From Patescibacteria group bacterium (GTDB lineage: Bacteria > Patescibacteriota > Patescibacteriia > JAHJFT01), in contig JAQTTB010000001.1 in assembly GCA_028710985.1 (NCBI GenBank), positions 457,864-521,863 of the forward strand: a stretch of DNA of 64,000 bases. The letters are read 5' to 3'. The notes under the pieces are model-generated. The model was not told where the DNA came from, did no database searches, and worked only from the letters and a program-made list of their open reading frames with translations. Position 1 is the first letter of the stretch, and each line of letters opens with the position of its first letter. The position numbers and the translations under genes were made by a program. Below are positions 10,240-38,709 of the stretch, in pieces.

Positions 10240-10836
10240 ATGAATCAAGTCTTAAAAATTATCATCGTCGCATTGATCGCCGCAATTATTATCGGGGGTG
10301 GTTATTATTTCTGGCAAAAAAATCAAGCAACTCAGTCAACGGCAGGATTAGGAAACACAGCAGCACCGGCTGGGGAGGAGCTGCCCGATCCACTCTTGTA
10401 TTCAACGGCCGGCCTTCCGGTTTCAGTTTCGAAAAATGCAGTATTGTTTGATTACACAGTCGAGCAATTGGAGGGGATGGCAGGGGAATGTGGTTCTCAA
10501 CACGACCCCGATTATTTTGATGAATTGATTTTAAAGTTCGTCGCTGCGGGTGCGACAAAGCATATTTACAACCTTAAATATTCTGATGCGAGCCAGGAGC
10601 CTGACACTTTCGTCATTACCCTGTTGCCTAATGAAGCGGGATACGCTTCCCTTGATCAGTTCAAAAAAGATTTTGATATATGCGCCGCAGGTGGCGATGC
10701 TTATCCCACCATGCTCAGCGAAAATTGGCTTCTTTTTGTAAATTCATGCGGAAGCGGATTTGATGACGGTTCGGGACGACCGATCGGGTGCGAAAAAGTA
10801 CGAGAAATCGTTGAGCCTACATTGAAGTTGAGATAA
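10240..10836 (+). CDS. Membrane-anchored hypothetical protein
   Basis: N-terminal TM helix, 198 aa. Confidence 0.45.
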   Translation: MNQVLKIIIVALIAAIIIGGGYYFWQKNQATQSTAGLGNTAAPAGEELPDPLLYSTAGLPVSVSKNAVLFDYTVEQLEGMAGECGSQHDPDYFDELILKFVAAGATKHIYNLKYSDASQEPDTFVITLLPNEAGYASLDQFKKDFDICAAGGDAYPTMLSENWLLFVNSCGSGFDDGSGRPIGCEKVREIVEPTLKLR

Positions 10837-10857
10837 AAATCAGCGTGCAAAATTAAA

Positions 10858-10950
10858 CCGAAAAAATTTTTCAAGCCATCTCGAAAACACTGGCGTTGAG
10901 AGCCCGGGAATAAAACCGAAGTCGGTTTCCCCGGGTTTTTTGGCCGGAAA
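10858..10950. repeat. Degenerate, internally deleted duplicate of 13592-13800 (5' region of the gene at 13474-14490)
   Basis: cgaaaaaatttttcaagccatctcgaaaacactggcgtt matches cgaaaatttttcaagcaatcttgaaaacactggcgtt; ...cggtttccccgggttttttggccgg matches cggttttttccggggtttttattttttggccgg. Confidence 0.6.
10903..10941 (+). terminator. Nested hairpin (CCCGGGAA ... AAACCGA-ag-TCGGTTT ... CCCCGGG) + TTTTTT
   Basis: Read directly. Confidence 0.45.
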
Positions 10951-10979
10951 AATTAAAAGATTTATTTCGTATTAATCTA

Positions 10980-11007
10980 TTGACAAAATTGGGGATAGCA
11001 CTATGAT
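10980..11007 (+). promoter_or_regulatory. Sigma-70-like promoter TTGACA-N16-TATGAT upstream of the peptide/radical-SAM cassette
   Basis: Read directly; ~140-nt leader contains a long-range inverted repeat TGCTGCTTTGGGTC ... GGCCCAAAAAGCAGCA. Confidence 0.45.
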
Positions 11008-11147
11008 GATCATAGGTCCTTAACATCTAGCCTCAAGTCCTACTTCTCTTGCATTGCTGCTTTGGGTCAATGAAGTTAAACGAAAATTCATGGTGAATTT
11101 TCGGCCCAAAAAGCAGCAGAAGACTGTAGGCGAGAAAGGAGGAAAAA

Positions 11148-11285
11148 GTGAAAAAGCCGCGGAAAAACACCAAGCCAGTCGTGCTCAAGGCCGATGATCG
11201 CGCGAAGGTTCTGGGAAATATTCCCAAACCTGGTCGCGACGTCGCTGACTGCGTTTGCTACACATCGTGCACGCGCTGCACGTAG
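11148..11285 (+). CDS. Putative RiPP precursor peptide, 45 aa, Cys-rich C-terminus (SCIFF/ranthipeptide-like)
   Basis: GTG start 5 nt after GGAGG; translation VKKPRKNTKPVVLKADDRAKVLGNIPKPGRDVADCVCYTSCTRCT*; not in the ORF track (<60 aa); sits directly upstream of the rSAM/SPASM gene. Confidence 0.5.
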   Translation: MKKPRKNTKPVVLKADDRAKVLGNIPKPGRDVADCVCYTSCTRCT

Positions 11286-11296
11286 CCGCAATTGCA

Positions 11297-11339
11297 GTGG
11301 GGGGTGTGGAAAGTAACTCTTCCCACCCCCGCATTTTTA
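11297..11339 (+). terminator. Imperfect GC hairpin + ATTTTTA between peptide and maturase (partial terminator/attenuator candidate)
   Basis: GTGGGGGGTGTGGAAAG-taact-CTTCCCACCCCCGC then ATTTTTAT. Confidence 0.4.
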
Positions 11340-11358
11340 TAGAGAAGGAGAAAATGCT

Positions 11359-12717
11359 ATGCAACTTTCCCGATGGTGCCACACGTTGCATCAAGATGGC
11401 GTTTCGGCGCTGGTGAACGCACTGACTCTTGGAGTAGTGTACATTTCAACCGAGGAACTGCGCGCTTTTATGGAAGCACTGCCCTCATCAGATAATGTTG
11501 GTGAGGTGGGGCTCATAGAAATTCTTACAGCCCAGGGATTATTAGTTGAAAATCAGACTACCGATGAGTTGGTATTCGCAAGAACGCGCGAACGGCTCAG
11601 ATCGGAGATGTCGCTCGAGCTGCTATATTTGCTTGTCACCGACGGTTGCAACCTGCGATGTACCTATTGCTTCGAAGAAACGCCGTCGCTTACGGCCCCA
11701 TTCCATTCGACGCAGATGACTAAGGAAACGGTTATCAGGGCGCTCGATCTATTCGCGAGGATGACGGCACGACACGGCAACCCGGAAAAAAAGAAGGTGA
11801 TTCATCTTTATGGCGGCGAGCCGTTAGCGAACCGCAAGGCGGTATATGAGGCCGTGTTCTATGTTGACGAACTCAAGTCGCGCGGTATTTTGTCCGACAG
11901 CTGTCAGATCGCAATCGTGACCAACGGAGTACTTCTCAAAGAGGAGGACGCACGGCTCTTCGCGACACACAACGTTACGGTTGGACTCTCGATTGATGGC
12001 CCAGCATCAGTTACCGATTTTTATAGGATTCCAAAACGCCGAGATGTGCGCGTTACGGAACGCATTACTTCTGCATTTCGCCTGCTCAAGCGTCATAATG
12101 TGAGTATCGGGCTGTCGGTAACCTTGACGCCCCAAGCGATTGAACGCTTCGATGAATTCGTCGCCTTCTTCACGGACGGGGAATTTCGCGAGGTGGACGG
12201 TGTTAGTCTGAATTTACTTCATTTTTCGCCCAATCTGATATTGCCTGACGATTATTATCACGCGGCCGTAGAGTGCCAGATAAAATTCTTTAAACGGTTT
12301 CGTGAGGCCGGACTCTACGAGGAGCGGGTGATGCGTAAAGTTCGTGCATTCGTGGATCAAGAACCGATGTACGCAGATTGCGGCGTGGTAGGCCGACAGC
12401 TCGTCGTCGCTCCGGATGGACGCATTGGCGTCTGTCAGGACTTCGTCAAGCCAAGAACTTACTTTCCGCGCTCTGTGTACGACGTGGAACATCACGATCT
12501 CCTTGAGGCGCTCTTCGCGGACTGGCGCGATCGTTCACCGTTTTTCATGCCACAGTGCAGGGATTGTTTAGCCATTAGCATCTGCGGCGGCGGGTGTCCC
12601 GCGAGTGCCGAGCTTAAAACCGGTAGTCGGTATAATCTCGACGAACGCGCTTGCCATCATAGTAAGCAAATACTTGAATGGTTGGTCTGGGATGCGTACG
12701 CAAAGCTCGACGGCTAG
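11359..12717 (+). CDS. Radical SAM/SPASM-domain peptide maturase (N-terminal RRE-like region, CxxxCxxC, C-terminal SPASM cysteines)
   Basis: VTDGCNLRCTYCFEE; C-terminal CGVVGRQLVVAPDGRIGVCQDF...CRDCLAISICGGGCPAS; AAGGAG RBS 8 nt upstream. Confidence 0.85.
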   Translation: MQLSRWCHTLHQDGVSALVNALTLGVVYISTEELRAFMEALPSSDNVGEVGLIEILTAQGLLVENQTTDELVFARTRERLRSEMSLELLYLLVTDGCNLRCTYCFEETPSLTAPFHSTQMTKETVIRALDLFARMTARHGNPEKKKVIHLYGGEPLANRKAVYEAVFYVDELKSRGILSDSCQIAIVTNGVLLKEEDARLFATHNVTVGLSIDGPASVTDFYRIPKRRDVRVTERITSAFRLLKRHNVSIGLSVTLTPQAIERFDEFVAFFTDGEFREVDGVSLNLLHFSPNLILPDDYYHAAVECQIKFFKRFREAGLYEERVMRKVRAFVDQEPMYADCGVVGRQLVVAPDGRIGVCQDFVKPRTYFPRSVYDVEHHDLLEALFADWRDRSPFFMPQCRDCLAISICGGGCPASAELKTGSRYNLDERACHHSKQILEWLVWDAYAKLDG

Positions 12718-12761
12718 CGGCTATCAGGGGGTTGAGAATGCTCAAAATATTTGCTACAATA

Positions 12762-12797
12762 GGGAAGATGAGAAACGCTTATCTTCCCTAATTTTTT
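12762..12797 (+). terminator. Terminator hairpin GGGAAGAT-N11-ATCTTCCC + TAATTTTTTA, overlapped by the TTGAGA-N17-TACAAT promoter of the next gene
   Basis: Read directly. Confidence 0.5.
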
Positions 12798-12799
12798 AT

Positions 12800-13540
12800 A
12801 TGAACTATCCTCACATTACTTTTCGCAAAAGCGCAAAAAAAGATTTTGAAACTTTACGCGCCTTCACGAAAGATGCCGAATATGATAATGGCAGAAATTT
12901 GAATTGGGCAGTATTCAAAAAATATCCCCGTCTAAAAATATATTTTGATAAAGATAAACATTTCAAAATCAAAAATGAAAAAGTATTGAGCAATTTTATT
13001 GATGAAACATATCGTGGTGAACAGATAAATATGAATCGTGCCTTGGCCCAGCACAAAAAACGTTGGGAAAAAATTGCTTTGGATTATTTTTCACTCGTTG
13101 ACGAACTCTTCAGCGGACGCAAGTGGCCGCGGGGTAAATATGTCGCCTTAGGCACGATCTGGGGCATGTATCCGCGTTTTCTGGAAGACAAAACATTCCA
13201 GATTCCATTTCGCCATCGTACCCCCGGGTATATTTCAGTTGTGATTGCGCATGAACTACTCCATTTTATGTTTTATGACTATTTTTACGCTCATTATCCA
13301 AAATATCGTGGTTCCGGAAATAATTTTATTGTCTGGCATATCTCAGAAATTTTTAATACCGTCGTTCAGAACTCACCGGCGTGGCTTAGCCGTTTTAAAA
13401 TAAAATCACTTGGATATCCAGAACACAAAAAAATTGTCGCGCGCATAGGCCGTACCCTGTACTGCAGTAATACATGGGATCTGAACGCGCTGGTGGACAA
13501 AATAATAAAAGAAGTGCAGAATCAGAAAATAAACAAATAG
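12800..13540 (+). CDS. Hypothetical protein with an HExxH motif (AHELLHF); possible zincin-like peptidase
   Basis: 246-aa ORF; AT-rich and K/N/Y/F-rich, unlike the adjacent GC-rich rSAM gene; start ATG 12800 rather than ORF-track 12605. Confidence 0.5.
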   Translation: MNYPHITFRKSAKKDFETLRAFTKDAEYDNGRNLNWAVFKKYPRLKIYFDKDKHFKIKNEKVLSNFIDETYRGEQINMNRALAQHKKRWEKIALDYFSLVDELFSGRKWPRGKYVALGTIWGMYPRFLEDKTFQIPFRHRTPGYISVVIAHELLHFMFYDYFYAHYPKYRGSGNNFIVWHISEIFNTVVQNSPAWLSRFKIKSLGYPEHKKIVARIGRTLYCSNTWDLNALVDKIIKEVQNQKINK

Positions 13541-14490
13541 TCCCGACTGATGTTTTGCTTCGCGAAACAAAAAACTCTGTGCAAAATGATTCCTCGAAAA
13601 TTTTTCAAGCAATCTTGAAAACACTGGCGTTTTTTGACATTTTTGATTATCCGCTCACTTCATTGGAAATCTGGCGGTATCTGTACGCGCCGGGTGAGCA
13701 AAAAATTTCCCTGAATCAAATTATTGAAGCCCTGGGAAATCCGGAACTAAAAGCCAAAATCGGTTTTTTCCGGGGTTTTTATTTTTTGGCCGGCAAGCAG
13801 GATTCGGTTGAACTGCGCCGCGAGCGGAACGCAATTGCCGAAAAAAAATTAATCCGCCTCCGGCCATACGCAAAATATCTCAACCGGCTCGGCGCGGTCT
13901 CCGGAGTCGCGGTGGCTAACACTCTTGCCATAAAACACTCACGGCCCGAATCGGATATTGATTTATTCATCATCGCGCGTCCGCATGCGGTCTGGAGCGC
14001 ACGGTTCTGGGCCATTCTGCCGCTTTATTTTTTCGGCGGACGTCCCCGGCCGGGAAGCATGCGCGATAAATTCTGTTTGAGTTTTCTGGTTGATGAAAAT
14101 CATCTTGATATTCTGCCGTGGAAAATGGAGCAGGATATTTATTATATATACTGGCTCGCGACGCTCATGCCCGTCTCCGGTCCGGAAGTGTTTGCGAATT
14201 TTTTTGAAAAAAATAAATGGATAAATAAATATTTGCCGAATTTTTTCCCGCCCGAGATGAGCGCGCGCGGGGAGCGGCGCCCGGCCTCGCGCCTTCCGTG
14301 TTTCGGCGGACGCATCTTAAAAGCGATTCAGCTTTTTGTGATGCCAGCCGCGCTCAAGGAGGCGGCGGCGCGGCATCACACGGACGTTATAATTTCCGAC
14401 ACTGTTCTCAAATTCCACCTTAATGACCGCCGAAGTGAATATGAAAAATGCTACCAGAAACGAGTTGCGAAAATTATTGATACAGTATAA
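13474..14490 (+). CDS. Hypothetical protein with nucleotidyltransferase-like (GS...SDIDL) segment; start uncertain (TTG 13555 or GTG 13579 possible)
   Basis: ...GAVSGVAVANTLAIKHSRPESDIDLFIIARPH...; the 5' part is duplicated at 10858-10950. Confidence 0.45.
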   Translation: MGSERAGGQNNKRSAESENKQIVPTDVLLRETKNSVQNDSSKIFQAILKTLAFFDIFDYPLTSLEIWRYLYAPGEQKISLNQIIEALGNPELKAKIGFFRGFYFLAGKQDSVELRRERNAIAEKKLIRLRPYAKYLNRLGAVSGVAVANTLAIKHSRPESDIDLFIIARPHAVWSARFWAILPLYFFGGRPRPGSMRDKFCLSFLVDENHLDILPWKMEQDIYYIYWLATLMPVSGPEVFANFFEKNKWINKYLPNFFPPEMSARGERRPASRLPCFGGRILKAIQLFVMPAALKEAAARHHTDVIISDTVLKFHLNDRRSEYEKCYQKRVAKIIDTV

Positions 14491-14796: not shown

Positions 14797-16122
14797 ATGT
14801 TACAACGCATCGCAAAATATCTCCTCTGGTTCTGGGTTTTTCTCATACCGTGGCAGACGCGGTGGATTATCGTTGATCCGATAATCGGCGGAGCGGCGTG
14901 GGAATATGGGCGGGTTAGCCTTTATGCGGGTGATATTATTTTTATAGCCCTTGCCGTCATTGCGGCATTTTTGGCTAAATCCCAAATCTCTCTGCCCGAG
15001 GCGGATGCGCCTCTGGTGCAAAATCTCAAATCTCAAAAATTTGGATTGAATTATATTTTAATTTTGATTTTTTTTCTGTGGGCCGGGGCGACTTTGATTT
15101 GGGTGGATGACCGGTTGGTCGGATTTTATTATGTTTTGCGTTTTAGCCAGATTGTTGCGCTTTGGTTTATCATAAAAATTATCAAACCAAATTTAAGTTT
15201 ATTTTTGTCCGCGCTGATTGCCTCCGGCGCGGTTCAGGCCGGGCTCGCGATCGCGCAGTTCGGATTTCAGTATTCTCCGGCCGATAAATGGCTCGGACTC
15301 GCCTCGCACGCGCCCTGGGAGCTTGGTCCGGCCGTGGTGGAAAGCGCGGCCGGCCGGTTTCTGCGCGCCTACGGCAGTTTGCCGCATCCCAACATGCTCG
15401 GCGGATTTCTGGTTTTTTGCCTGATCGCGGCCGCGCATTATATCAGCCGCGTTTCCGGACGAGTGGCGCTCTGGCTTGTCCTGCCCGTCCTCGTAATGTC
15501 GCAGGCCCTGGTCTGGAGCTTTTCGCGCTCTGCCTGGCTTGGACTCGCCTTCGGTTTTGCGGTTCTTATTCTAGGTTCGCGCGGCGTAAGAGATACACAG
15601 AAAAAATTCATCGTGATATTTGTTTTAATTTCGTCGGTTTTTCTCGCGAACGCCGCGCTCGCGCCCGATCTCCTGGGCTCGCGGCTCGCGGCCGCCGGCC
15701 GGCTTGAAGCCCAGTCAATTGCCGAGCGGGGAGCGCAGGCCGGACTCGCGCTTGAAGCCGCGAAATCCCATCTTCTGGGCCTCGGCCCGGGAAATTACAC
15801 GGTTTGGCTCATGCAAAAGTTTCCCAATTTGGCGGGCTATGCCTATCAGCCGGCCCACAATCTTTATCTTCTGGCATTGGCCGAACTCGGAATTCCGGGG
15901 GTAATAATTCTTGCCGCCCTGGCCGCCATGTTTTTGAAATTTTGCCGAAAAAATCTGCTTTGCCTTTCCCTGCTTGCGGCCGCCGGCATAATCAGCCTGT
16001 TTGACCACTATTTTTGGTCCAGCTACAGCGGAATTTTGCTCCTCGGCCTTGCCCTCATCCTGCCTGGGGTTAATGGGTTTTCAATTCACGCGCATTCTTG
16101 GTATAATAATCGCGAGGAATAA
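14797..16122 (+). CDS. O-antigen ligase-like (Wzy_C family) polytopic membrane protein
   Basis: Multi-TM protein with the ...SRSAWLGLAFGFAVLILG... segment typical of O-antigen ligase/O-oligosaccharyltransferase families. Confidence 0.55.
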   Translation: MLQRIAKYLLWFWVFLIPWQTRWIIVDPIIGGAAWEYGRVSLYAGDIIFIALAVIAAFLAKSQISLPEADAPLVQNLKSQKFGLNYILILIFFLWAGATLIWVDDRLVGFYYVLRFSQIVALWFIIKIIKPNLSLFLSALIASGAVQAGLAIAQFGFQYSPADKWLGLASHAPWELGPAVVESAAGRFLRAYGSLPHPNMLGGFLVFCLIAAAHYISRVSGRVALWLVLPVLVMSQALVWSFSRSAWLGLAFGFAVLILGSRGVRDTQKKFIVIFVLISSVFLANAALAPDLLGSRLAAAGRLEAQSIAERGAQAGLALEAAKSHLLGLGPGNYTVWLMQKFPNLAGYAYQPAHNLYLLALAELGIPGVIILAALAAMFLKFCRKNLLCLSLLAAAGIISLFDHYFWSSYSGILLLGLALILPGVNGFSIHAHSWYNNREE

Positions 16123-16140
16123 GAATGTTTAAGCCGAAAA

Positions 16141-16743
16141 ATGGATAGCCAAACTCGAAAGCTCTCCAGAGGCGAGAAGTGGAGCTTATTTGTATTAAGC
16201 GCCGCGACTTTGTGTATCGTAATTTTGGCTTCATGGCAGATGAAAAATACGATTTTTTCACCGTTTGTCCAGACGCCAAGTGAGGATACGCGCGCTCTGT
16301 TTGATAATTCACTGCAGCTTGAGGAATTGCGCGGCAAGGACAGCGATAGCGATGGCTTAAGCGACTTTGACGAGCTCTATGTCCACAATACGAGTCCGTA
16401 TCTTCCGGATACTGATTCCGACGGTATGAGCGATTCCGCGGAAATCACTGCCGGTAAAGACCCAAACTGTCCCGAGGGCCAGGAATGCTATATTGACCAG
16501 ACCGGCGGCACCTCGACCGCGGCCGGAGAAACCGAAGAAGTGAATTTGACGGAAAGCGAAAAGGCCGATCTTATGCTCCAGCTTCCGGCCGATGAGATCC
16601 GCGAGCTTCTGAAAAATGCCGGCGTGCCCGAGGAAACGCTCAACCAGCTTACTGACGACGAACTCAAACAGATGGTTGCCGATGTTCTTGCCGAAGAGGG
16701 CGGCTCATTGCCGGCGACCGGCTCAACTTCAACCCAAGAGTAA
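16141..16743 (+). CDS. Membrane-anchored protein with thrombospondin-type-3-like Ca-binding repeats (DSDSDGLSDFDE, DTDSDGMSD)
   Basis: N-terminal TM helix and acidic D-x-D-x-D-G repeats. Confidence 0.5.
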   Translation: MDSQTRKLSRGEKWSLFVLSAATLCIVILASWQMKNTIFSPFVQTPSEDTRALFDNSLQLEELRGKDSDSDGLSDFDELYVHNTSPYLPDTDSDGMSDSAEITAGKDPNCPEGQECYIDQTGGTSTAAGETEEVNLTESEKADLMLQLPADEIRELLKNAGVPEETLNQLTDDELKQMVADVLAEEGGSLPATGSTSTQE

Positions 16744-16747
16744 ATTT

Positions 16748-19700
16748 ATGATGCGTTTAAAACAACAAACAATGCGGACAATCGTTGCGCTTGTTTGTTT
16801 TGTTTTTGTTTGCAATCTCCTGCTCGTGCCGATTCATTACGCGCGCGCTCAACTGGTAGTAACGGATCCGGTTACCGGCCAGGCAGTCACCATAAAAAAT
16901 GTAAAAGATTTTATAAAGACCCTGCTTGTCGGCGTGGCCGGCGTTGCCGTAATTAACGCAGCAAATTATTTCGCACAAAAGCTCGCCTACGACGCCGCCG
17001 TAGCTTTGGTTTCCGGCGGTAAGGGCCAGATGCCGCTTTTTTCCACCAAGGGCTGGGGCGATTATTTTAAAGACGCATCGCTCGGCGCGGTCGGCGAATT
17101 TGTGGGCACTTTGTCCGAAGGATTTGAGGGCCTAGATCTCTGTAATCCCGGTCCGCCCGGCCTTGTGGCAAAACTTCAGACCAGTTTGGTCAAACCATAT
17201 ATTCCGGTGGGCGAAGGCCCGGAGCCAAAATGCGAGTGGAGCAATATTTCCGAAAACTGGACCGAGTTTACCGAAGACTTTACCACCGGCGAGGTTCTTC
17301 AGCGCTCGGGCGTGATGTTTGAACCCGGCCAGTCGCCGCTTTCCATTACCCTTGAAGCCAGCCGCAATCTTTCGGTTCAGGTTTATGAAATGGAAAAATT
17401 AAAAACCCTGGAACGCGAGGAGGGGGAAGGATTTTTGGCCAAGACCGGCATTATTTCCGGCGAGGTCCAGACTCCAGCCCAGGTCATCGCCCAAAAAGCC
17501 AAAGACCTTTCAAAGAGCGGCGAAGAATCCCAGCAAACTAATGTCCAGATGATGGGTTCGGCGCTCGGCGCCGGCGCGACGCAGATTCTCACTTCCGCGC
17601 TTGGCACATTCGTGAATACCCTGGCCGGAAAATTATTGGAAAAAATATTTAACAAGGGTTTAATTAGTTTTCAGAAAAAGGGAAAAAATACCGGCGCACT
17701 CATTAATCCTGAATTTTCGCTCGTCGGCACGCGCGAGGTGGCGCAGGAGATGCAGTCCGATCTGATTACCCCGCCGATTAAAGAGGCCGAGGTTTTTGAT
17801 CAGGTGACTGATTTTTCGGTCTGCCCCTCCCAGTTCGCCAGCCCGAATAACTGCGTAATTGACCAGGGATTTTCCGAAGCCCTGCGGCGGGAACAATCCG
17901 GTACCCCGCTCTCGGTCAAAGAGGCGATTAATCAGGGCCTGCTCCGCGGCGACTGGCCGCTTATTTCCTCGTATGACCGCGCCCGCAACACGGATATTTT
18001 TTGCTACACCTACGGATATTGCTATTCAAATTTAGTCAAACTTCGCAAGGCGCGCATCGTCCCGATCGGTTGGGAAATTGCCGCGCAAAAAAGCGGCGCC
18101 TCGGCTTCGCAGATAACCTTGAGCCAGGCCATGGATGCTTTCTATGACTGCGGAACCGATGCCGATGGCCGGCCGGTTGTGGATTCCGAACATCCGTGGT
18201 GCCACCTCGTCGATCCAAACTGGATTATCAAATATCCGCTTACCCAGTGCCGCGCTTCGGTCTACGGTTCAACCCTGCTCACCGCCGAAAACAGCCTGCG
18301 TTCCGAAACCTGCGTTGATTCGCCGACTTGCATTGCGGTTGATGACGGCGGATCCTGTGTCGGGGGTTGGGGATACTGCACCCGCGAAAAAAATACCTGG
18401 CATTTTGACGGCGACCAGTGTCCGGCGCGTTACGAGTCCTGCATCGCGCTTGAAGACCGGAGCGGCAATCAGGTTTCGTATTTATTAAATACCGTAAATT
18501 ACGGCGCCTGCACTTCGGAAAATGTTGGCTGTCGCTGGTACGCGCGCGAAAAGGCCGGCGACAACTGGACCGCGACCGCAAGTTATAATTCCACGGATAA
18601 AACCATGGTCGCGACCGCGGGCGCCATTTATTTAAACAAAAACGCGGCCGAATGTTCGGCTTCGGACGCCGGCTGCACGGAAATGATCCGTGCCACGGCG
18701 ACCGGAGCGACTTTGAATATTCTGCCCAATCCGAGTTTTGAAACCGCGTCCGCCGAAAATCCGGCCATGCCCGAGAACTGGGTTGCCGCCCGCGATAATT
18801 CCAAATACACCAGCGCGGCAACTACCCTGGACGCCACGGGGGACAAATCTTACGACGGGGTCGCGGCGGTTTCGCCCGGCACCGGCTTAGCCGCCGAAGT
18901 CAAACTCAATGCTTCAAGATTTTACACATTCTCTTTTTACGCGCGGACTTCCAGCCGCGCCACGCTTCTCGCCGGTGTTTCAGTCCTGAAGAGCGATCGT
19001 GTCAAAGCCGATCTCACGCCATATTATTTTTCTGGAACCAATTGCACGCGCGGCACCCAATTTGGCGAAGGCGGGGTAAATGAATCAGTTTATTTTAATC
19101 AGATTGCACCGCCCACCGAATACGCGCGCTATTCCTGCACCTTTACCACTCCGGTTGCCGCGGCTTCGCCCAAGGGATATTTTATCGGCCAGATATTTCT
19201 CTATAGCCAGGACGGCACCTGGATTGACGCCGTCCAGCTTGAAGAATCCGAAACCGTAACCGCGTTTCATGAAGGGATTTCCAGCGGAGCCGGGAGTGTT
19301 TATCTTAAAAAACCGCCCGAATATCTGGGATGCACCGGCGCCTCAACCGATCCGGCCGAATGTTCCAATTATCTGCGCCAATGCCTGGCATCGGATGTCG
19401 GCTGTTCAATGTATTATCCAACAAACGGCGATCCGGCGCTTGCCGCGGTCGCGACCGGCGAGAATATTTGTCCGGCCGAATGCGTCGGCTACGACACCTT
19501 CCGCGAAGAGCCGAGTCAGTGGACCGCCGCGGCCAAATTCCCGCTTTACTTAATTCCGGATACCGCCGAGATGTGTGAAGCGAGTGTCGTGGGCTGCGAT
19601 GAATTTACCAACTTAGATGCCGCTGAAGCTGGTGGGGAATCCAAAAATTATTTCACTTCAATCCGCTCCTGCCAGAAGCCGGCCGCGGACAGCGAAACGT

Positions 19701-22700
19701 TTTATACCTGGGAGGGCTCGGACACCGCCGGCTATCAGCTCAAGACGTGGGTGCTCAAGGCGAGCGACAAGGACGCCGGCCCGTGTACCACGCTCGCGCC
19801 GGGCGGGACCTGTAATGATCCAGCCGTCGGCACCGCGGACTATGACGAGCGCGACTGCTCGGAAGATTTTAAAACCGACGCCAACTGCCGCGAATTTTAC
19901 AATACCGCCGGCGGAATTTTTTATCGCAATTATTCAGATACCATTATTTCCACCGATGAATGCTATCGCTACCGCAAAACCGAAGCAACCGGGGAGGCGG
20001 ATTGCGAATCAACCGGCGGCCAGTGGAGCGCGGCCGGAGAATGCATTTATCTGGGCTATCCGTCCGAGAGCCAGCGCTGCGGCGCCGAATCCGCGGGCTG
20101 CCGCGCCTACACCGGCCCGACGAGCCGCAATGTTGAGGAAGAATTTTTTGACGAATTTGAAAATAACACAACCCAGGATTGGCAGGGCGGGGCCGTGAGC
20201 ACCGAATCCGTCACGCTCGGCGGGCATTCGCTCAAAGCCGCGTCCGGGGCCGCGGTTTCCAAAACCTGGGAATTAACCGCGGGCGAAACTTATATTTTGA
20301 GTTTCTGGGCCAAGGGACAAGGCACGGTGGCCGCGCAAATTGACGGCGAGCCGCTCGGCAGCGTCGCCCTCGGTTCGGAATGGGCAAATTATCAGGTCGG
20401 GCCCCTGCTCATGAGTGAGGCGGGGATAGGTTCAGTGGTTAGCTTCAGCGGATTTGCGGTTGATTCGTATCTGGACAACATCCGGCTCACTCGCGTATCG
20501 GATCATCTTTATTTAATTCGCAACTCCTGGTATACGCCGATGGTGTGCGACATGAATAATCAGGGCGTCTACCTGCCGCGCGCCCAACTCGGTTGCCGCG
20601 CCTACACGGACAGCGAAAATCAGGAAAAATATTTTAAATCATTCGATCGCCTTTGCAGCGAAGGGGCGGTGGGCTGCGAAGCTTTTATTGATACTTACAA
20701 TTCCGCGTCAACCGCGAAACAGATATTCAATCAGGGAGAGGACGGCGCCGAAGTCACGGTGCCCGGCGACACGCTTTCATATTATGTATATGACGAGAAC
20801 ATGGCCTGCGGCGCCGACGCCAAAGGTTGCGAAGCGATGGGTCGCCCGATTTTGGATCAGGATGGTCATACCGTGCTCTCGTACGATGATGTATATCTCG
20901 TGAACGATCCGGAAAATTATTCCAACTCGCTCTGCCTCACCGAAGAAGCCTACTGCGACGAATTCAAGGGCGATACCGGAACTTATTATTTCAAACATCC
21001 GGAAGACAAAACCTGCGAATTTAAGGAAAAGGTGAAAATTGCCGGGCTGGAATATTCGGGTTGGTTCCGCACCGGCACCGAAGACCCGTGCTATGGGTCG
21101 TATCTCGGCGCCGGCAACTCGTACGGTATCTGGAAAAACGGCGACTCGGGCTATGACGCCTGGTACGGCAACTGCCCGGCCGACATGAGCACCTGCACCA
21201 AATTTACCGATCCAGCCGACACTTCGGCCGATGAGCCGCAGGGCAAATCATATTATTATTTGGATAACGACACGCTTGATACTAAGAGCTGCGCTGGTTC
21301 GGCCTCCAAAAGCGCGGGCTGCGCCTTATTTAACAGTACTTCAAAGTCAACCAAGACAGAAAATTCCTGGGCGACTTATCTCACGAGCGAGGACAATAAT
21401 TTCGCCGCTGTTGCCACAATCGATTGCCTCAAAAGCGATAGTCCGTATTGTACCAAGGTTTGCTTTGATAAAGAATTCGGCCCGGAAGCGTTTGTTCCGT
21501 ACCGGTTCGGCCATAACTGTCGCGATGCCGGCGACTGTTCGGGCTACAGGGGTTGCGGTGAGATTTCAAGTTTTGGCAGCAAATGGCGGCACTGGATTCC
21601 GGAACAGAATATTTATCAATACACCGGTTCGTGCGAGGCCGGTTCGGTTTGCGCGGCCGGCAATCCGGGCTGTACCGTCGGCGATCTTTGCGTGGATATG
21701 GCCAAAGAGCTCCTGCGCAATGATTCAAATGAATTATTGAAAGTCCGCCGCGACCGCGAATGCGGCGAGTGGCTGGCGTGCCGCAGTTCGGTTTCGGTCT
21801 GGGACAATGAAACGCAAAAATACAAAAAAATCTGCACCAGCCTCGGGCTTTGCGACGAGTTTGCCCCGGTCGGGGATTCCAGCGAGTGCGTTCATTTTAT
21901 TGAGAGCGAACACGCCGAAGACGTGCTTTCCGAAGCGCTTTACACCGCGCGCGATGTTTCCTGGGAAGGCCAGGATTATTCGGGCTACGCCATTCCGAAT
22001 TATTATTCCATTGACGAGCTTTCGCCCATTGATTTGAGCAGTATTGTCGCCGGTTCAAGCCTGCCGGATTTGCGCGTTGCTTATGTTGAAACCGGCTGCG
22101 GCGCCGGCGTGGCTACTGGCCAGACATGCGGAGACGCGAACGCGCTCGGCAACAAGGGTGTCTGCGTTGCCCAAAAATGCGTTTATGCCATCAACGGCGA
22201 AGCCCTGCCCACGGCCGGAACATCGGCGGAATTATATACGTCGCTTACCGCCGGGGAAAACAAATACCGCGTGGTCGGCCAGTCCTGCCGCGCTTATCCG
22301 GAAGAAGGCGCGCCGTTCCCCTCAAGCGTGGCCGAGTGGGAGAACGGAAAAATGACCACCATTGACCCCAACTTCAAACGCGCCAATATCTGCGAGCAGT
22401 CGATCTGGGAAGATCTGAACAGCGACGGCGTGCGCGATGAAAACGAAATCACGTATCAGGACTGCGAATGCGATTATCAAAAAGTTGAATTTGGAAACGG
22501 CGCGGTCACGAAATTTTATTCCACCAATGAAGTTAATATTCCCAAAGGCATCTGCCTCAATGGCCCGCGTTCCGGGCTTTCGTGCGTGCCGGGCGCGGAA
22601 TACGACGACACCCTGCCGGCCGATTCCGCGGATAATCAAAAAACCTGCGGCGCGATTACTTCGGGCGGCGCCTGCCAGGCGGTTGAGCGCGCCGACAAAT

Positions 22701-25582
22701 TCGTGGGCTGGCTCGGCCAGTGCCTGGAGCGCGATTTGCGCACGCCATTGAACGGCAGCACCGAAGATTTTGCCTGCCTGACCTGGTATCCGTCTTACAT
22801 TCTTTCCGGCGGACAGGATGTTTATAATCTTTTCCCCAATGCCGGATATAATCCGACCAACACCGGCCGCTACTGGTGCGCCGAGGCGCGGGGCATCCGC
22901 AATTCCATTGGACCGACTCGGGCTGGCGAAGATTATGAAGTCATAACGCGCGATAATATTGCCAGTACCACAAAGTGGACAAAAGATCCGCCGGGCGTAT
23001 TATTCCCCGGGGTGCTGTGCACTGGCGCTATTAATTGTCCGGATGCAACGGGCCAGGAAAAGTCCGTGTGCCACGACTTTGGTTCTTACAGCGCCTGTGC
23101 CACGGGTAAATTTTATGGCAGCTATACGGCTTCTGAAGATTCGGCCTGGAATCTTTTGGTCTATACGGCCGACACCAAGGATTATTCAGAAAGATTTTTG
23201 CCGGCAACACAATACGAAAATTATTATCTTGACGAAATCGTTGCCATTGAACTCGCGGTTGACGGCGCGCATAATCCCAAGTTGTGGCCGGATGGCCAAA
23301 ACAGTGATACTGAAGATTTTTACGAAGACGGAAACAATATATTAAGCCGCCAGAATGAAGTTGAATTGAAAAACGGATTCAAAGCCTGGGAAACAAGCTG
23401 GGGCATTCCCGAAGAAACAAAAATTCCGTCAAGCGCTCCGCCGATTCTCACGCAGGCCAATTATGCGTTTTCCGGAGAATATAAATATGAGCATGTAACC
23501 GAAGACGCTTCATGCGAAAATGATTACAGCGATTCAAAGAGCTATTTTGCCATTCGCGCCATCTTTGACGCAAACGGCAAATTCCGCGGATTTTGGACCA
23601 CAACCTGCAATGGCACAAGCAAGCCGCGCGCCTGGGTGAAATTTAAAGTCGTTTTTCACCTTGCGGAAAATTGCGAATCTGTCGCCCAGGTGGTAAAGGC
23701 GAGCGGAGAAAACAAGGCCTATACCGACCGGCTTTATCAGGCAACGAATTTTTTAATGATTGTTGGCAGCGAATATAAATATCCGCAGACTTTCGCGCCC
23801 TTTGGTTCGGCGCAAAGTTACGAGTCGCCGCTTGGCCAAAAATTGCCGTGGATTGTCGGCGATAATCGGAAAGACAAAAATTCTGTCGGTACGCCGGACT
23901 TGAGCCTGATTCCGGAAGATTACACTCTCGCCGGTTCATCCCTTGGTTGTAAGGGCGCATGCGCCAAAGAAGAACTCGATGATTTAAATTTTAATACTTT
24001 AACGCGCGCCCTGGGCAATCTTCAGCAGTTATTTACTGCGGTTTATAAAATATTTGAGTGGGAGCCGGGCTATAAACAGGGCAAATGCGAACCGTCCGGC
24101 GGCTGGTCGGAAGGAACGGGTTTCTATATTCCCTGCAATGGCGAGGGCAACACATGTGATAATGATCCGCCCGGTTCGTGCGTGCAGTCTCTTGAATGCG
24201 ATATCGGTCCGCTCGCCGGCGATCGAAATTGCGCAATAAATGATTATTGCCAGGGCGAGTCCGGATATTGCTATCCAAATCCAGACACCACTGTTTACGG
24301 CGATACCGGCGGCGGACGATATGGGGTGATTGAGGAAGGCGAAGGCATTTGCACCGGCAGCTTGCGCGGCAGCGCGCTGTGCGGCGATATTGAATACCCG
24401 GATGAGGGCACGAATAATTTTCCGTCTCCCGAGGGCACCATCAATTTAACCGTTGACGCCGAACGGGCCGGTGATGAATTCTGTCAGACTTCGGGGGTGT
24501 GTATTGATTGGCATATTAGCGATGGTCAGACAATTTATCAGTGCTATGGCGGGCTAAAACATGGCGAGTCATGCAGCGGACAAAGCGATTGCGGCATTAA
24601 TGCCATGAACGGCTTTTGCGACAGCGGTGTTTGCACGGGCGGCGGCTTTGACAGCATATCGGAAAAAGTTTTCTGTTCCGATAACTCGCAGTGCATAATT
24701 TCAAATGCCATGTGCGCGACAAATGTTTATCGCTGCAGCGACGGACTATTGTCTGGCGCCGAATGTGATCCGGGCTCAAGCATTTGCGGCCAGTCATTTT
24801 CTTGTACAGTAGACGCTGTTCCGGCAGAGCGTGACTTTTACGAAAAGAGCGTTCCGGCCTCTGTCTCCGACACGGCCGAAAGCCAGGGCGTTCCGCCGAC
24901 CGTCGCGGCCATTGATTTTACCAAATGCGATCAATCAACCGGCACCTGCCGCATTGCCAAGCTTAACGGTTTTGATGTGAACAACTGGTATTACGGCACC
25001 ATCACCGGCCAGGAACAGCTCAAGGCAACCATCCGCTTTTATGCCTGGGCCGACCATAATCAGATGCCAATTGTTTCGCGCACCGTGGACTGGGGAGACT
25101 CAAGTCCCAAAGACATGACCTCGGCGAGCAAATACAAAAACTATAAGCCTTATTGCGACAGTGATTCCCTGGAATGTTCGGACGCTCCGGGCATGACCTG
25201 CAAGACATCGAGCGACTGCCCGTCCGGCACCGGCACGTGCCAGCCGGATCTAAGCGGCGTGCCGCACTTTGGCAATGATGACAAAGCCTGCAGCGAGGGA
25301 TTTTTCCAGTTTGAACACACTTATCTTTGCGATGGCGGCGACGAGCTTGGTACTTGTCCGTTCAGCGGTTCGCCGGCTTCGTCAGACAGCATTCCGGCCA
25401 ATGGCTGCAAAACCGCGACTGCCTGTTATTACCGCCCGCGCGTCCAGGTTCAGGATAACTGGGGCTGGTGCAACGGCGACTGCAATGGATTGGGTGAGGG
25501 GTGCTATGAGGATGAATGCTTTATTACAAGGGATGATCCACATTGGACCGAGTTTGATGGCTACATCAAAATAAATAAATAA
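16748..25582 (+). CDS. Giant secreted cysteine-rich protein (2,944 aa), signal peptide, CBM-like NPSFE region
   Basis: Uninterrupted 8.8-kb ORF; start at the ATGATG 5 nt after the upstream stop; N-terminal hydrophobic signal (IVALVCFVFVCNLLLVPIHYARA); very high Cys content. Confidence 0.7.
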   Translation: MMRLKQQTMRTIVALVCFVFVCNLLLVPIHYARAQLVVTDPVTGQAVTIKNVKDFIKTLLVGVAGVAVINAANYFAQKLAYDAAVALVSGGKGQMPLFSTKGWGDYFKDASLGAVGEFVGTLSEGFEGLDLCNPGPPGLVAKLQTSLVKPYIPVGEGPEPKCEWSNISENWTEFTEDFTTGEVLQRSGVMFEPGQSPLSITLEASRNLSVQVYEMEKLKTLEREEGEGFLAKTGIISGEVQTPAQVIAQKAKDLSKSGEESQQTNVQMMGSALGAGATQILTSALGTFVNTLAGKLLEKIFNKGLISFQKKGKNTGALINPEFSLVGTREVAQEMQSDLITPPIKEAEVFDQVTDFSVCPSQFASPNNCVIDQGFSEALRREQSGTPLSVKEAINQGLLRGDWPLISSYDRARNTDIFCYTYGYCYSNLVKLRKARIVPIGWEIAAQKSGASASQITLSQAMDAFYDCGTDADGRPVVDSEHPWCHLVDPNWIIKYPLTQCRASVYGSTLLTAENSLRSETCVDSPTCIAVDDGGSCVGGWGYCTREKNTWHFDGDQCPARYESCIALEDRSGNQVSYLLNTVNYGACTSENVGCRWYAREKAGDNWTATASYNSTDKTMVATAGAIYLNKNAAECSASDAGCTEMIRATATGATLNILPNPSFETASAENPAMPENWVAARDNSKYTSAATTLDATGDKSYDGVAAVSPGTGLAAEVKLNASRFYTFSFYARTSSRATLLAGVSVLKSDRVKADLTPYYFSGTNCTRGTQFGEGGVNESVYFNQIAPPTEYARYSCTFTTPVAAASPKGYFIGQIFLYSQDGTWIDAVQLEESETVTAFHEGISSGAGSVYLKKPPEYLGCTGASTDPAECSNYLRQCLASDVGCSMYYPTNGDPALAAVATGENICPAECVGYDTFREEPSQWTAAAKFPLYLIPDTAEMCEASVVGCDEFTNLDAAEAGGESKNYFTSIRSCQKPAADSETFYTWEGSDTAGYQLKTWVLKASDKDAGPCTTLAPGGTCNDPAVGTADYDERDCSEDFKTDANCREFYNTAGGIFYRNYSDTIISTDECYRYRKTEATGEADCESTGGQWSAAGECIYLGYPSESQRCGAESAGCRAYTGPTSRNVEEEFFDEFENNTTQDWQGGAVSTESVTLGGHSLKAASGAAVSKTWELTAGETYILSFWAKGQGTVAAQIDGEPLGSVALGSEWANYQVGPLLMSEAGIGSVVSFSGFAVDSYLDNIRLTRVSDHLYLIRNSWYTPMVCDMNNQGVYLPRAQLGCRAYTDSENQEKYFKSFDRLCSEGAVGCEAFIDTYNSASTAKQIFNQGEDGAEVTVPGDTLSYYVYDENMACGADAKGCEAMGRPILDQDGHTVLSYDDVYLVNDPENYSNSLCLTEEAYCDEFKGDTGTYYFKHPEDKTCEFKEKVKIAGLEYSGWFRTGTEDPCYGSYLGAGNSYGIWKNGDSGYDAWYGNCPADMSTCTKFTDPADTSADEPQGKSYYYLDNDTLDTKSCAGSASKSAGCALFNSTSKSTKTENSWATYLTSEDNNFAAVATIDCLKSDSPYCTKVCFDKEFGPEAFVPYRFGHNCRDAGDCSGYRGCGEISSFGSKWRHWIPEQNIYQYTGSCEAGSVCAAGNPGCTVGDLCVDMAKELLRNDSNELLKVRRDRECGEWLACRSSVSVWDNETQKYKKICTSLGLCDEFAPVGDSSECVHFIESEHAEDVLSEALYTARDVSWEGQDYSGYAIPNYYSIDELSPIDLSSIVAGSSLPDLRVAYVETGCGAGVATGQTCGDANALGNKGVCVAQKCVYAINGEALPTAGTSAELYTSLTAGENKYRVVGQSCRAYPEEGAPFPSSVAEWENGKMTTIDPNFKRANICEQSIWEDLNSDGVRDENEITYQDCECDYQKVEFGNGAVTKFYSTNEVNIPKGICLNGPRSGLSCVPGAEYDDTLPADSADNQKTCGAITSGGACQAVERADKFVGWLGQCLERDLRTPLNGSTEDFACLTWYPSYILSGGQDVYNLFPNAGYNPTNTGRYWCAEARGIRNSIGPTRAGEDYEVITRDNIASTTKWTKDPPGVLFPGVLCTGAINCPDATGQEKSVCHDFGSYSACATGKFYGSYTASEDSAWNLLVYTADTKDYSERFLPATQYENYYLDEIVAIELAVDGAHNPKLWPDGQNSDTEDFYEDGNNILSRQNEVELKNGFKAWETSWGIPEETKIPSSAPPILTQANYAFSGEYKYEHVTEDASCENDYSDSKSYFAIRAIFDANGKFRGFWTTTCNGTSKPRAWVKFKVVFHLAENCESVAQVVKASGENKAYTDRLYQATNFLMIVGSEYKYPQTFAPFGSAQSYESPLGQKLPWIVGDNRKDKNSVGTPDLSLIPEDYTLAGSSLGCKGACAKEELDDLNFNTLTRALGNLQQLFTAVYKIFEWEPGYKQGKCEPSGGWSEGTGFYIPCNGEGNTCDNDPPGSCVQSLECDIGPLAGDRNCAINDYCQGESGYCYPNPDTTVYGDTGGGRYGVIEEGEGICTGSLRGSALCGDIEYPDEGTNNFPSPEGTINLTVDAERAGDEFCQTSGVCIDWHISDGQTIYQCYGGLKHGESCSGQSDCGINAMNGFCDSGVCTGGGFDSISEKVFCSDNSQCIISNAMCATNVYRCSDGLLSGAECDPGSSICGQSFSCTVDAVPAERDFYEKSVPASVSDTAESQGVPPTVAAIDFTKCDQSTGTCRIAKLNGFDVNNWYYGTITGQEQLKATIRFYAWADHNQMPIVSRTVDWGDSSPKDMTSASKYKNYKPYCDSDSLECSDAPGMTCKTSSDCPSGTGTCQPDLSGVPHFGNDDKACSEGFFQFEHTYLCDGGDELGTCPFSGSPASSDSIPANGCKTATACYYRPRVQVQDNWGWCNGDCNGLGEGCYEDECFITRDDPHWTEFDGYIKINK

Positions 25583-25593
25583 AAAATAATAAA

Positions 25594-25628
25594 TCGTCCT
25601 GATGGATGGTGAGGACGATTTTGTTTTT
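25594..25628 (+). terminator. Rho-independent terminator after the giant gene
   Basis: TCGTCCT-N11-AGGACGA + TTTTGTTTTT. Confidence 0.55.
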
Positions 25629-25664
25629 AAAAAAAAGAGAGCGCCAACAGGGGGTTGGTGCTCT
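25629..25664 (-). terminator. Minus-strand terminator for the PEGA lipoprotein gene
   Basis: AGAGCGCCAAC-aggggg-GTTGGTGCTCT preceded (on +) by AAAAAAAAG. Confidence 0.5.
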
Positions 25665-25694
25665 TGAGGAGGCGACCGAAGGTCAGACCGCGGG

Positions 25695-26276
25695 TCAGAA
25701 GACGCGCGTGTAAGAAAGGTCGTCAGAACCGAACGAGTTGATGATGTGAATTGTGACGTGGTTGTTGTCCGCGACCGTGCCGGTGATGGTTTCGTCCGCA
25801 TCTTCGTAGCGGAGAGAACTTCCCTCCATGTAGAGGAGACTGGCACCGCAGAGACCATTCACCGTACAGCCATCCTGACCTACGTCGCAGATGCTCGTCG
25901 AGACATCCTCCACCCACCGTCCGGTGAGGTCGTAGTCGCAGGTCGGGACCGCCGGGTCCAGGGAAACATCCACGGGCGTGGTTGTTCCGGATGCCACATC
26001 CACTACGCCGGAGTATTCGTCATATCCGGCGAGCGTGATGCGCACCTGGTACTGTCCGGGTGTGAGGTCGGCGATGACCGTGGGCGTTGTGCCCTTGACC
26101 TCTTCGTTGAGGTACAGGGTCGCGCCGGCGGGCGTGGTGTCCACGGAAAGAATTCCGTAGGTTACCGAGTCTGGCGTTGCGTCCGAGTCGGTCGTGGTGT
26201 CGGCCGGGTTGTCGGTGGTTTCGCACGCGAACGCGAACATGGCCGCCAGGGCCAGGATGATGTATTTCCCCTTCAT
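25695..26276 (-). CDS. PEGA-domain lipoprotein
   Basis: Signal + Cys (AAMFAFAC); GILSVDTTPAGATLYLNEEVKGTTP...LTPGQYQVRITLAGYDEY matches PEGA; GC-rich gene; AGGAGG RBS. Confidence 0.6.
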   Translation of the reverse strand: MKGKYIILALAAMFAFACETTDNPADTTTDSDATPDSVTYGILSVDTTPAGATLYLNEEVKGTTPTVIADLTPGQYQVRITLAGYDEYSGVVDVASGTTTPVDVSLDPAVPTCDYDLTGRWVEDVSTSICDVGQDGCTVNGLCGASLLYMEGSSLRYEDADETITGTVADNNHVTIHIINSFGSDDLSYTRVF

Positions 26277-26421
26277 GATCGTTTCCTCCTATGGTCAATT
26301 CGGGGGTGGTTCAAAGGGCAATGGGCCAGGATTGGTCCATTTTTATTATCGCGCAATTATATCACGGATTCAAGGGCTTGTCAAGGGGGAGACGGTGAAT
26401 ATTTGCGTAATATTCGCCAAA

Positions 26422-27009
26422 TTATTTACACGGATCAAGAATGTTTTTCCAATTTTTGGGATTATTTTTGATGTAATTCGTAATGCGTCGTAAATCCCAT
26501 GCGTCGCGGACGATGTGGTCATAATATGAACGTTGCCATTGAAAATATTCATCCTCGTTTTGATTCGCGATTCGGGTAACCGCGGATTTAAATTCATGGA
26601 TAATTTTTGGCAACAACATTTTATCCCGTTGTACGTCGCGTTGTACGTCGCGTTGTAGGGGTCGCATATATGCGACCCCTACGTCCGTCCATTGCCCGCC
26701 ATGCGAATCGTCCACCCCGTCCGTCCATTGCCCGCCGTACGCATTCCGAATAAATATTAATCCATGAAAATGGTCGGGCATAACAATGTATTGCCCCAAA
26801 TCAATATTCGGAAAATGAATTGGTAAATAATTCCAACATCGGTCCGCGATTTCACCAATCGCTGAACGCCGCATTTCATTTTTTACAATATTTCCAAAAA
26901 AACATTTTTTTCCATCGGTACATATTGTTACATAATATATACTCGGGCGGGAATAATCGCGTTTTTGATATCGGTTTCGTTTTCGCGCGCGTTGATTCAT
27001 GTTAATCAT
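26422..27009 (-). CDS. IS200/IS605-family HUH (Y1) transposase / REP-associated tyrosine transposase (RAYT)-like
   Basis: YYVTICT..., HUH motif MPDHFHGLI, C-terminal WQRSYYDHIVRD; gene contains tandem GTTGTACGTCGC repeats and a 28-bp perfect palindrome GTAGGGGTCGCATATATGCGACCCCTAC. Confidence 0.65.
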   Translation of the reverse strand: MINMNQRARKRNRYQKRDYSRPSIYYVTICTDGKKCFFGNIVKNEMRRSAIGEIADRCWNYLPIHFPNIDLGQYIVMPDHFHGLIFIRNAYGGQWTDGVDDSHGGQWTDVGVAYMRPLQRDVQRDVQRDKMLLPKIIHEFKSAVTRIANQNEDEYFQWQRSYYDHIVRDAWDLRRITNYIKNNPKNWKNILDPCK

Positions 27010-38698: not shown

Positions 38699-38709
38699 AA
38701 GAATTTTCT

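Follow-up and report, generated by a model that had tools for sequence, protein, structure and literature searches.

The window analysed here is a stretch of 64,000 nucleotides from a Patescibacteria group bacterium (contig JAQTTB010000001.1, positions 457,864 to 521,863), and the subject of this work is a pair of adjacent genes within it, which encode a small TSP3-repeat protein and a giant, exported, cysteine-rich protein of 2,944 amino acids (aa). By the gene orders compared, the TSP3 gene and the giant gene are an invariant two-gene operon, which is probably translationally coupled. We give about an even chance to the reading that this operon encodes a cell-surface complex of ABY1-type Patescibacteria (Uhrbacteria- and Falkowbacteria-like), most likely one by which the cell contacts or adheres to a partner or host cell. 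The two genes are as follows.

16141..16743, plus strand: small partner protein of 200 aa, anchored by a transmembrane (TM) helix at aa 11-35; it carries two Ca-binding loops of the TSP3 type and a CPxGxxC disulfide loop, and its C-terminal region is helical
16748..25582, plus strand: giant exported Cys-rich protein of 2,944 aa plus stop (open reading frame (ORF), composition, homologues)

The TSP3 partner and the operon

A comparison of 87 orthologue-bearing loci, gathered via proteins and via a scan of genome collections, revealed a TSP3 homologue directly ahead of the giant gene, in the same orientation, in all 85 loci that include upstream DNA. The gaps between the two genes range from -46 to +150 nt and are mostly 2-16 nt, with an exception of 549 nt in one locus (L009), and the gap in the window is 4 nt. 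The initial annotation of the window had described the partner as a membrane-anchored protein with Ca-binding D-x-D-x-D-G repeats, and the protein indeed features one N-terminal TM helix and two such loops. The residues D67, D69, D71, D75 and E78 of the first loop, D90, D92, D94, D98 and E101 of the second, and C110 and C116 are invariant in 71 partner orthologues. The Pfam model TSP3_bac (PF18884) matches 50 of these 71 proteins with a best E of 1.5e-13, and the window copy is borderline at 24.9 bits versus a cut-off of 25. A promoter-like site, TTTTCA-18-TATAAT with an extended TG, is located at 16078..16107 (+) in the 3' end of the upstream Wzy_C gene, 34 nt before the TSP3 start, and is a consensus match only.

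The partner resembles the bacterial TSP3-repeat proteins CglD and MtsD of Myxococcus in its two D-x-D-x-D-G-x-x-D-x-x-E loops, and the NCBIfam MtsD and CglD models give weak matches to it by way of these loops. At only ~200 aa, however, the partner comprises a single TM helix, the two repeats and a short tail that is helical. It was rejected as an orthologue of CglD or MtsD, since it scores 22 bits versus an equivalog cut-off of 800.

The giant gene and export of its product

The giant protein is encoded by a single open frame without interruption, 16616..25582 (+). The first ATG of this frame falls within the upstream gene, and the supported start is the ATG at 16748, just past the TAA of the TSP3 gene, which gives the 2,944-aa product. 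This start is preferred because the short gap that it leaves agrees with the spacing in the orthologues. A database protein of 2,936 aa (P0001), which begins at the next in-frame Met, 8 codons on, is the identical protein from three independent assemblies, the orthologues of 2.6-3.4 kaa are unbroken, and the giant gene is split in only 3 of the 87 related loci. The frame is therefore no assembly artefact, and the uninterrupted 8.8-kb ORF of the initial annotation is confirmed. Very long ORFs of 1,300-2,200 codons are also found antisense to the giant orthologues in three loci (L034, 3394..10107 (-); L013, 10685..15007 (-); L069, 12389..16315 (-)). These ORFs were rejected as genes and are spurious, probably stop-poor reverse frames of the biased coding sequence.

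The start of the giant protein carries an export signal:

16748..16849, plus strand: signal peptide, aa 1-34, with predicted cleavage at ARA/Q (n-h-c layout read from the sequence)

The N-terminus begins with the basic stretch MMRLKQQTMR, which is followed by a 19-residue hydrophobic core, TIVALVCFVFVCNLLLVPI, and by HYARA/Q. A hydrophobicity scan places the hydrophobic segment at aa 6-34, and the cleavage-site consensus P..A.AQ is kept across the giant family. The signal peptide that had been noted earlier is consequently best described as a Sec-type n-h-c arrangement with a conserved AxA site, and the giant protein is, by this signature, Sec-exported. At the other end, the C-terminus (...FDGYIKINK) features no LPXTG motif, and there is no hydrophobic segment beyond aa 1238. 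Pfam and NCBIfam scans found no SLH, CWB or other wall-anchoring domain in the giant protein. Membership of the sortase- or SLH-anchored surface proteins and surface-layer (S-layer) proteins was rejected, since the defining features of these anchored families were looked for and were absent.

Domain architecture and conservation

The alignment of homologues and the structure models divide the mature protein into eight regions.

16850..17794, plus strand: Cys-poor N-terminal region, aa 35-349, with predicted long helices (conservation; low-confidence AlphaFold2 (AF2) helices)
17795..18727, plus strand: most conserved Cys-rich core block, aa 350-660 (alignment, model)
18728..19282, plus strand: first CBM4/16/22-like beta-sandwich, aa 661-845, which starts NPSFE
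19283..20134, plus strand: Cys-rich block of the core, aa 846-1129; its disulfide loops are invariant (alignment, motif count, model)
20135..20497, plus strand: second CBM4/22-like beta-sandwich, aa 1130-1250
20498..22897, plus strand: Cys-rich conserved core, aa 1251-2050, without a recognised fold (invariant Cys and other residues)
22898..24847, plus strand: hypervariable, indel-rich region, aa 2051-2700 (alignment)
24848..25579, plus strand: C-terminal domain, aa 2701-2944, again conserved; its motifs are VDWGD, HxY and DNWGWC (alignment)

The only recognised modules are of the carbohydrate-binding module (CBM) type. The domain scan that had been suggested with the initial annotation was run with Pfam at E up to 1, both for the full-length sequence and for nine 400-aa pieces that overlap, and it matched CBM_4_9 and no other domain. 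A scan with NCBIfam gave no match, and a profile of the whole family, searched against PDB sequences with the same E limit of 1, matched nothing but CBMs. Both the beta-jelly-roll fold and the Pfam match assign aa 661-845 and aa 1130-1250 to the CBM_4_9/CBM22/CBM16 type. The giant modules share 16-22% identity with CBM4, CBM16 and CBM22 (Pfam CBM_4_9; PDB 4xup, 2zew, 1gui), and they are attached to no glycoside hydrolase. The two modules are insertions that are more variable than the core.

Two structure models of the giant protein have mean pLDDT values of 65 and 55, and the input alignment of 28 sequences probably lowered their quality. Two domains were modelled confidently, a small alpha-rich one at ~aa 350-495 with the near-invariant motif YCYSNLVKLRKARIIPIGWELAA and a beta-rich one at ~aa 940-1120, and neither of them has a Pfam, NCBIfam or PDB relative. 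Within aa 1251-2050 AF2 is confident only for ~aa 1750-2010, and a Foldseek search with the second model, which covers this segment, returned nothing at E below 0.01. The fold search with the first model returned jelly-roll matches only, which swamped the list.

The jelly-roll matches bear on the idea that the giant protein is a released toxin or lytic effector that attacks a host, in which case the CBM-like modules would be receptor-binding domains as in the Cry, Vip3 and CDTb/iota toxins. This idea is highly improbable. The giant protein matches such toxins only via the shared jelly-roll modules, with a whole-query TM score of ~0.1, and no pore-forming or enzymatic domain was found in the Pfam, NCBIfam, PDB-profile and fold searches. 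Additionally, the obligate membrane-anchored partner favours retention at the surface over release.

The core blocks at aa 350-660, 846-1129, 1251-1560 and 1651-2050 are the best conserved parts of the protein, with 46-70% identity to near relatives and 35-54% to distant relatives, and they feature many invariant Arg, Asp and Trp residues besides the invariant Cys. The Cys-poor region at aa 35-349 includes a conserved hydrophobic motif, KLAYDAAV..ASGG.GQ.PLF. The hypervariable region is only 8-47% identical and carries large indels even among relatives of 57-63% identity, versus 60-70% identity in the blocks that flank it. The resemblance of the C-terminal domain to PKD domains consists of motifs only (VDWGD, HxY, DNWG), and no Pfam PKD model matches aa 2701-2944 at E up to 1; one homologue, P0022, does carry PKD domains. 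Short ORFs or fragments homologous to the C-terminal domain (...CCVFKPRVQLKDNWGWCNGSC...) are present in two loci, L006 (19536..19925) and L089 (20414..20584), at a distance of 1-2 kb past the full gene, and are possibly orphan C-terminal remnants. A C-terminal cassette with orphan fragments like those of Rhs and CdiA was considered and rejected, since fragments were seen only in these two loci and none in the window.

Cysteine content and the disulfide-loop motif

The giant protein contains 134 Cys, or 4.55% of its residues, versus 0.95% in the 39 other ORFs of the window. The earlier description had spoken of hundreds of cysteines with many CxxC, CxxxxC and CDxxNxxG patterns; besides the lower total, the protein contains 4 CxxxxC and not one CxxC or CDxxNxxG. 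The dominant spacings are instead C-x5-C (17 occurrences) and C-x6-C (22 occurrences). The motif C-x(4-9)-G-C-x-x-[YFMWL] occurs 8 times, whereas 500 shuffled sequences gave 0.6 on average and never more than 4. It belongs to a recurring mini-module in which an aromatic/aliphatic strand (e.g. YYLxN) is followed, after 5-9 residues, by C-x5-6-G-C-x-x-[YF], and all of the Cys of this mini-module are invariant in the giant family. Of the 134 Cys, 89 are kept in at least 80% of 120 aligned homologues, and most of those 89 are kept in 100%. A BLAST self-comparison found no internal repeats, and only the short Cys-loop motif recurs.

Large Cys-rich extracellular proteins are known from the Candidate Phyla Radiation (CPR), e.g. 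from Peribacteria, and have been proposed to function in attachment (Anantharaman et al. 2016, PMC4736985). The giant protein resembles this set in that it has a signal peptide, a length above 1,500 aa and a Cys content of several per cent, bears no functional annotation and comes from a CPR host with a small genome. The proteins of the published set are encoded in a multi-gene cluster with strain variation, carry FG-GAP annotations and show weak similarity to the Myxococcus Cys-rich repeat. In contrast, the giant protein, compared with them by description, features a single strict architecture, CBM modules, the C-x5-6-G-C motif and an obligate TSP3 partner. Membership of the Myxococcus Cys-rich repeat family was rejected, since its CDxxNxxG motif is absent and no NCBIfam or Pfam repeat model matches the protein.

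Family size and distribution

At least 226 homologues of the giant protein were scored, and the best 120 each exceed 1,000 bits. The named sources are all Patescibacteria (Uhrbacteria, Falkowbacteria, Parcubacteria) and all of the entries are labelled 'hypothetical protein'. Relatives are encoded in at least 567 species genomes of GTDB. With aa 340-660 as the query, 1,133 clusters at 50% identity were found, in which the match is always located at ~aa 340-690 of a ~3-kaa protein; shorter matches resemble contig-end fragments. By these matches the family has one fixed architecture throughout. The characterization of the protein as a hallmark giant protein of a small-genome lineage holds in that it is exported, Cys-rich and has its homologues in Patescibacteria/CPR. 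A literature search found no paper that describes the giant family, its fixed architecture, the Cys motif, the TSP3 partner or the position beside a type IV secretion system (T4SS).

This degree of constancy also suits a different role, in which the giant protein and its TSP3 partner would build a structural scaffold of the envelope, S-layer-like or wall-organising, and would be no cell-contact device. The strongly conserved core, in which numerous Arg, Asp and Trp residues are invariant along with Cys, is in line with such a scaffold. So are the identical architecture in all 1,133 clusters, the conserved block that the giant gene shares with ksgA, prfA and groEL, and the envelope proteins encoded around it (PEGA, M23 peptidase, Wzy_C). 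However, known S-layer proteins are generally Cys-poor, the giant protein lacks any SLH or other wall-anchoring domain that the scans could find, and a 650-aa hypervariable region is more typical of specificity determinants. The scaffold role is unlikely on balance, and it is the strongest of the competing explanations.

The Wzy_C neighbour and the question of glycosylation

Two genes upstream of the operon encode a membrane protein of the O-antigen-ligase type and its companion.

13474..14490, plus strand: Wzy_C-linked protein lacking a Pfam match (homologue directly upstream of Wzy_C in 23 loci)
14797..16122, plus strand: Wzy_C (O-antigen-ligase-like) polytopic membrane protein, 441 aa (Pfam, hydrophobicity)

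Pfam Wzy_C (PF04932, cut-off 31.7) scores 55.7 bits over aa 231-372 of the 14797..16122 product, which has at least 10 hydrophobic segments, in agreement with the initial annotation of a polytopic Wzy_C/O-antigen-ligase-family protein ahead of the pair. The same annotation had grouped the Wzy_C, TSP3 and giant proteins in a surface-glycoprotein module in which the ligase-like enzyme, as an O-oligosaccharyltransferase like PglL or PilO, would glycosylate the giant protein. The TSP3 part of this grouping stands, with the partner present in 85 of 85 loci, and the Wzy_C part does not. What speaks for a link is that the Wzy_C protein truly belongs to its family, that its gene directly precedes the pair in the window and in L001/L002 and L008, and that this gene is within 10 kb in ~33 loci, as part of the same extended syntenic block, which includes an NAD-dependent sugar epimerase/dehydratase. 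However, only in the window and in these loci, which are 57-58% identical, does the TSP3 gene alone separate Wzy_C from the giant gene. In ~30 further loci Wzy_C is located 6-9 kb upstream, and the housekeeping and other genes groES, groEL, DUF4870, prfA, epimerase, sua5 and ksgA lie between; in the rest of the loci, about half, it is not within 10 kb of the giant gene. The constant companion of Wzy_C is a different protein, the 13474..14490 homologue, which accompanies it in those ~30 loci as well, and the promoter-like site described above is positioned between Wzy_C and the TSP3 gene. No NCBIfam model, and hence none specific for PglL or PilO, matches the Wzy_C protein at E up to 0.01, and Pfam reports Wzy_C only. 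The gene was not found in a clear O-antigen or lipopolysaccharide cluster elsewhere. Glycosylation of the giant protein by the Wzy_C protein, having neither conserved adjacency nor a specific match behind it, has a very small chance of being right.

The ancestral gene order, as reconstructed from the relatives, is Wzy_C, [groES ... ksgA], [TSP3, giant, PEGA ... M23], secretion cluster, and the order in the window is Wzy_C, [TSP3, giant ... M23], [groES ... ksgA], secretion cluster. By these compared orders the window lineage swapped two adjacent gene blocks, and the adjacency of Wzy_C is therefore derived and lineage-specific. On this comparison Wzy_C is a bystander beside the pair and no conserved partner. 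Its recurring arrangement with the 13474..14490 product suggests a two-gene unit in wall-bearing monoderms.

Further upstream, a 45-aa ORF with a Cys-rich C-terminus, 11148..11285 (+) (MKKPRKNTKPVVLKADDRAKVLGNIPKPGRDVADCVCYTSCTRCT), is located 74 nt before a radical SAM/SPASM maturase gene, 11359..12717 (+), whose product scores 226 bits as FibroRumin-like and 119 bits as PapB/ranthipeptide-like. The two are a candidate precursor/maturase pair for a ribosomally synthesized and post-translationally modified peptide (RiPP). The block 10240..13540 is lacking from the syntenic relative L001.

Downstream genes and the type IV secretion cluster

Beyond the giant gene, the window encodes envelope proteins and a secretion cluster.

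25695..26276, minus strand: PEGA-domain protein, convergent with the giant gene and loosely conserved (Pfam PEGA 57.7 bits)
27962..30004, plus strand: M23 peptidase with a MopE-like Cys-rich metal-binding motif (Pfam, NCBIfam; downstream of the giant gene in 17 loci)
36236..43579, plus strand: type IV secretion cluster, with genes for two membrane proteins (820 aa and 603 aa), for PrgI (40521..40961), for a 223-aa protein and for a VirB4-like ATPase (41627..43579)

An iterated HMM search found the PEGA gene downstream of the giant gene in 5 loci, and it is also present in L089; the gene for a 221-aa protein was found downstream in 1 locus. Both proteins were rejected as conserved partners on these counts. 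Between the PEGA gene and the 221-aa gene, at 26422..27009 (-), there is a gene that resembles those of REP-associated tyrosine transposases (Y1_Tnp), with an NCBIfam score of 46 bits versus a cut-off of 80, and that is missing at this position in L001; a homologue of it is present right behind the giant gene in L088.

The secretion cluster was identified by Pfam matches to PrgI (44 bits) and to the TraG P-loop (100 bits). It continues with a comF-like gene, three tRNA genes and recG (44164..44844 (+) and 45700..47760 (+) are listed there), and a protein with a T4SS_pilin domain is encoded on the opposite strand at 47807..49276 (-). The same gene arrangement has been reported for ABY1-class Patescibacteria (PMC12102498). 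The 820-aa product of the first secretion gene has no Pfam or PDB relative, and the label VirB6-like was rejected for it, since it would rest on position and hydrophobicity alone. In L003, L027, L032, L045, L050 and L088 the M23 gene directly precedes the homologue of this first secretion gene, and, by that position, the M23 peptidase may be the wall hydrolase (VirB1 analogue) of the secretion system.

In the window the cluster begins 10.65 kb after the giant gene, with housekeeping genes between them. In most relatives this distance is 0.2-7 kb, and the 820-aa homologue starts 0.2-6.6 kb past the giant stop in relatives, often straight after the M23 peptidase. A metagenome scan seeded with the 820-aa family revealed the giant gene upstream and on the same strand in 25 of 31 loci with at least 8 kb of upstream DNA, and in 21 of the 27 loci with at least 9.9 kb. 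The ksgA gene is directly upstream of the TSP3-giant pair in 56 of 71 loci, which is as tight as the secretion linkage. Since the whole region is a conserved syntenic block in which ksgA is equally linked, linkage alone shows no shared function of the giant protein and the T4SS.

The arrangement recalls PrgB, the aggregation substance of pCF10, in that a gene for a large surface protein is located just upstream, and on the same strand, of PrgI/VirB3-like and VirB4-like channel genes. However, the giant protein is 2-3 times larger than PrgB, is disulfide-rich and lacks an LPXTG sortase signal. It was rejected as a member of the PrgB family, since there is no sequence or domain similarity between the two.

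In one locus, L007, the giant gene is followed by two non-homologous giants, a 2,713-aa protein without a Pfam match (18720..26861 (+)) and a protein of more than 1,715 aa, from 27770, with DUF2341 and LamG domains. The 2,713-aa protein is no homologue of the giant protein and was rejected as a second copy of the family. By their composition the three genes would be a surface-protein island.

Proposed role of the operon

In the proposed surface-contact complex, the giant protein would leave the cell via Sec, with its signal peptide predicted to be cut at the ARA/Q site. Outside the cell it would fold into small modules in series, with invariant disulfides clamping each of them, and form a rigid extracellular stalk; the clamped modules are suggested by the 89 conserved Cys and by the eightfold C-x5-6-G-C loop. 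The small TSP3 partner would grip the Cys-poor helical N-terminus of the giant protein (aa 35-349) and so keep the latter at the membrane, given that the giant protein has no anchor of its own and that the partner has a TM helix and two invariant Ca2+-binding loops. The two CBM4/16/22-type sandwiches, whose fold is predicted, could bind polysaccharide on the wall of another cell or on the cell's own wall, and the hypervariable region at aa 2051-2700 could provide lineage-specific specificity and, with these sandwiches, take part in binding glycans on the surface of another cell.

Several points weigh against a contact function. About 75% of the giant protein is without a recognisable fold and the models are weak overall, so that a catalytic domain could hide in it, e.g. 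at aa 350-495. A structural envelope role would equally well explain the strongly conserved core, the housekeeping neighbours and the single copy that each locus appears to have. The tethering by the TSP3 partner is read from gene adjacency only, and CBM-like sandwiches, to judge from toxins, can also act as protein-binding modules. For every family member, moreover, surface contact is a prediction from sequences and models.

A more specific version of the surface-contact reading is possible and is put forward tentatively, its likelihood being a part of the even chance given to surface contact as a whole. In this version the TSP3 and giant proteins would be the missing surface-contact module, an adhesin or a mating-pair or host-docking device, of the monoderm-type T4SS of ABY1-class Patescibacteria. 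The ancestral locus would read ksgA, TSP3, giant, (PEGA), M23 wall hydrolase, 820-aa, 603-aa, PrgI/VirB3, VirB4, comF, recG. The lectin-bearing giant protein would dock the ultrasmall cell on the wall glycan of its host, and the secretion or DNA-uptake channel would then engage. The giant protein would be a functional analogue of PrgB that is made of unrelated, mostly novel folds. A survey of Patescibacteria T4SSs found no PrgB-like adhesin (PMC12102498), which makes a giant lectin-bearing protein at the head of the locus an obvious candidate.

The family may matter for the biology of these organisms in two respects. Patescibacteria genomes may be only ~1 Mb in size, and the giant gene alone costs ~9 kb of such a genome. 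To our knowledge, almost nothing is known about the contact between Patescibacteria and their hosts besides the type IV pili of Saccharibacteria. A large unannotated family, with an invariant partner gene and with a secretion cluster nearby in most relatives, provides a testable cell-contact candidate for a major CPR class.

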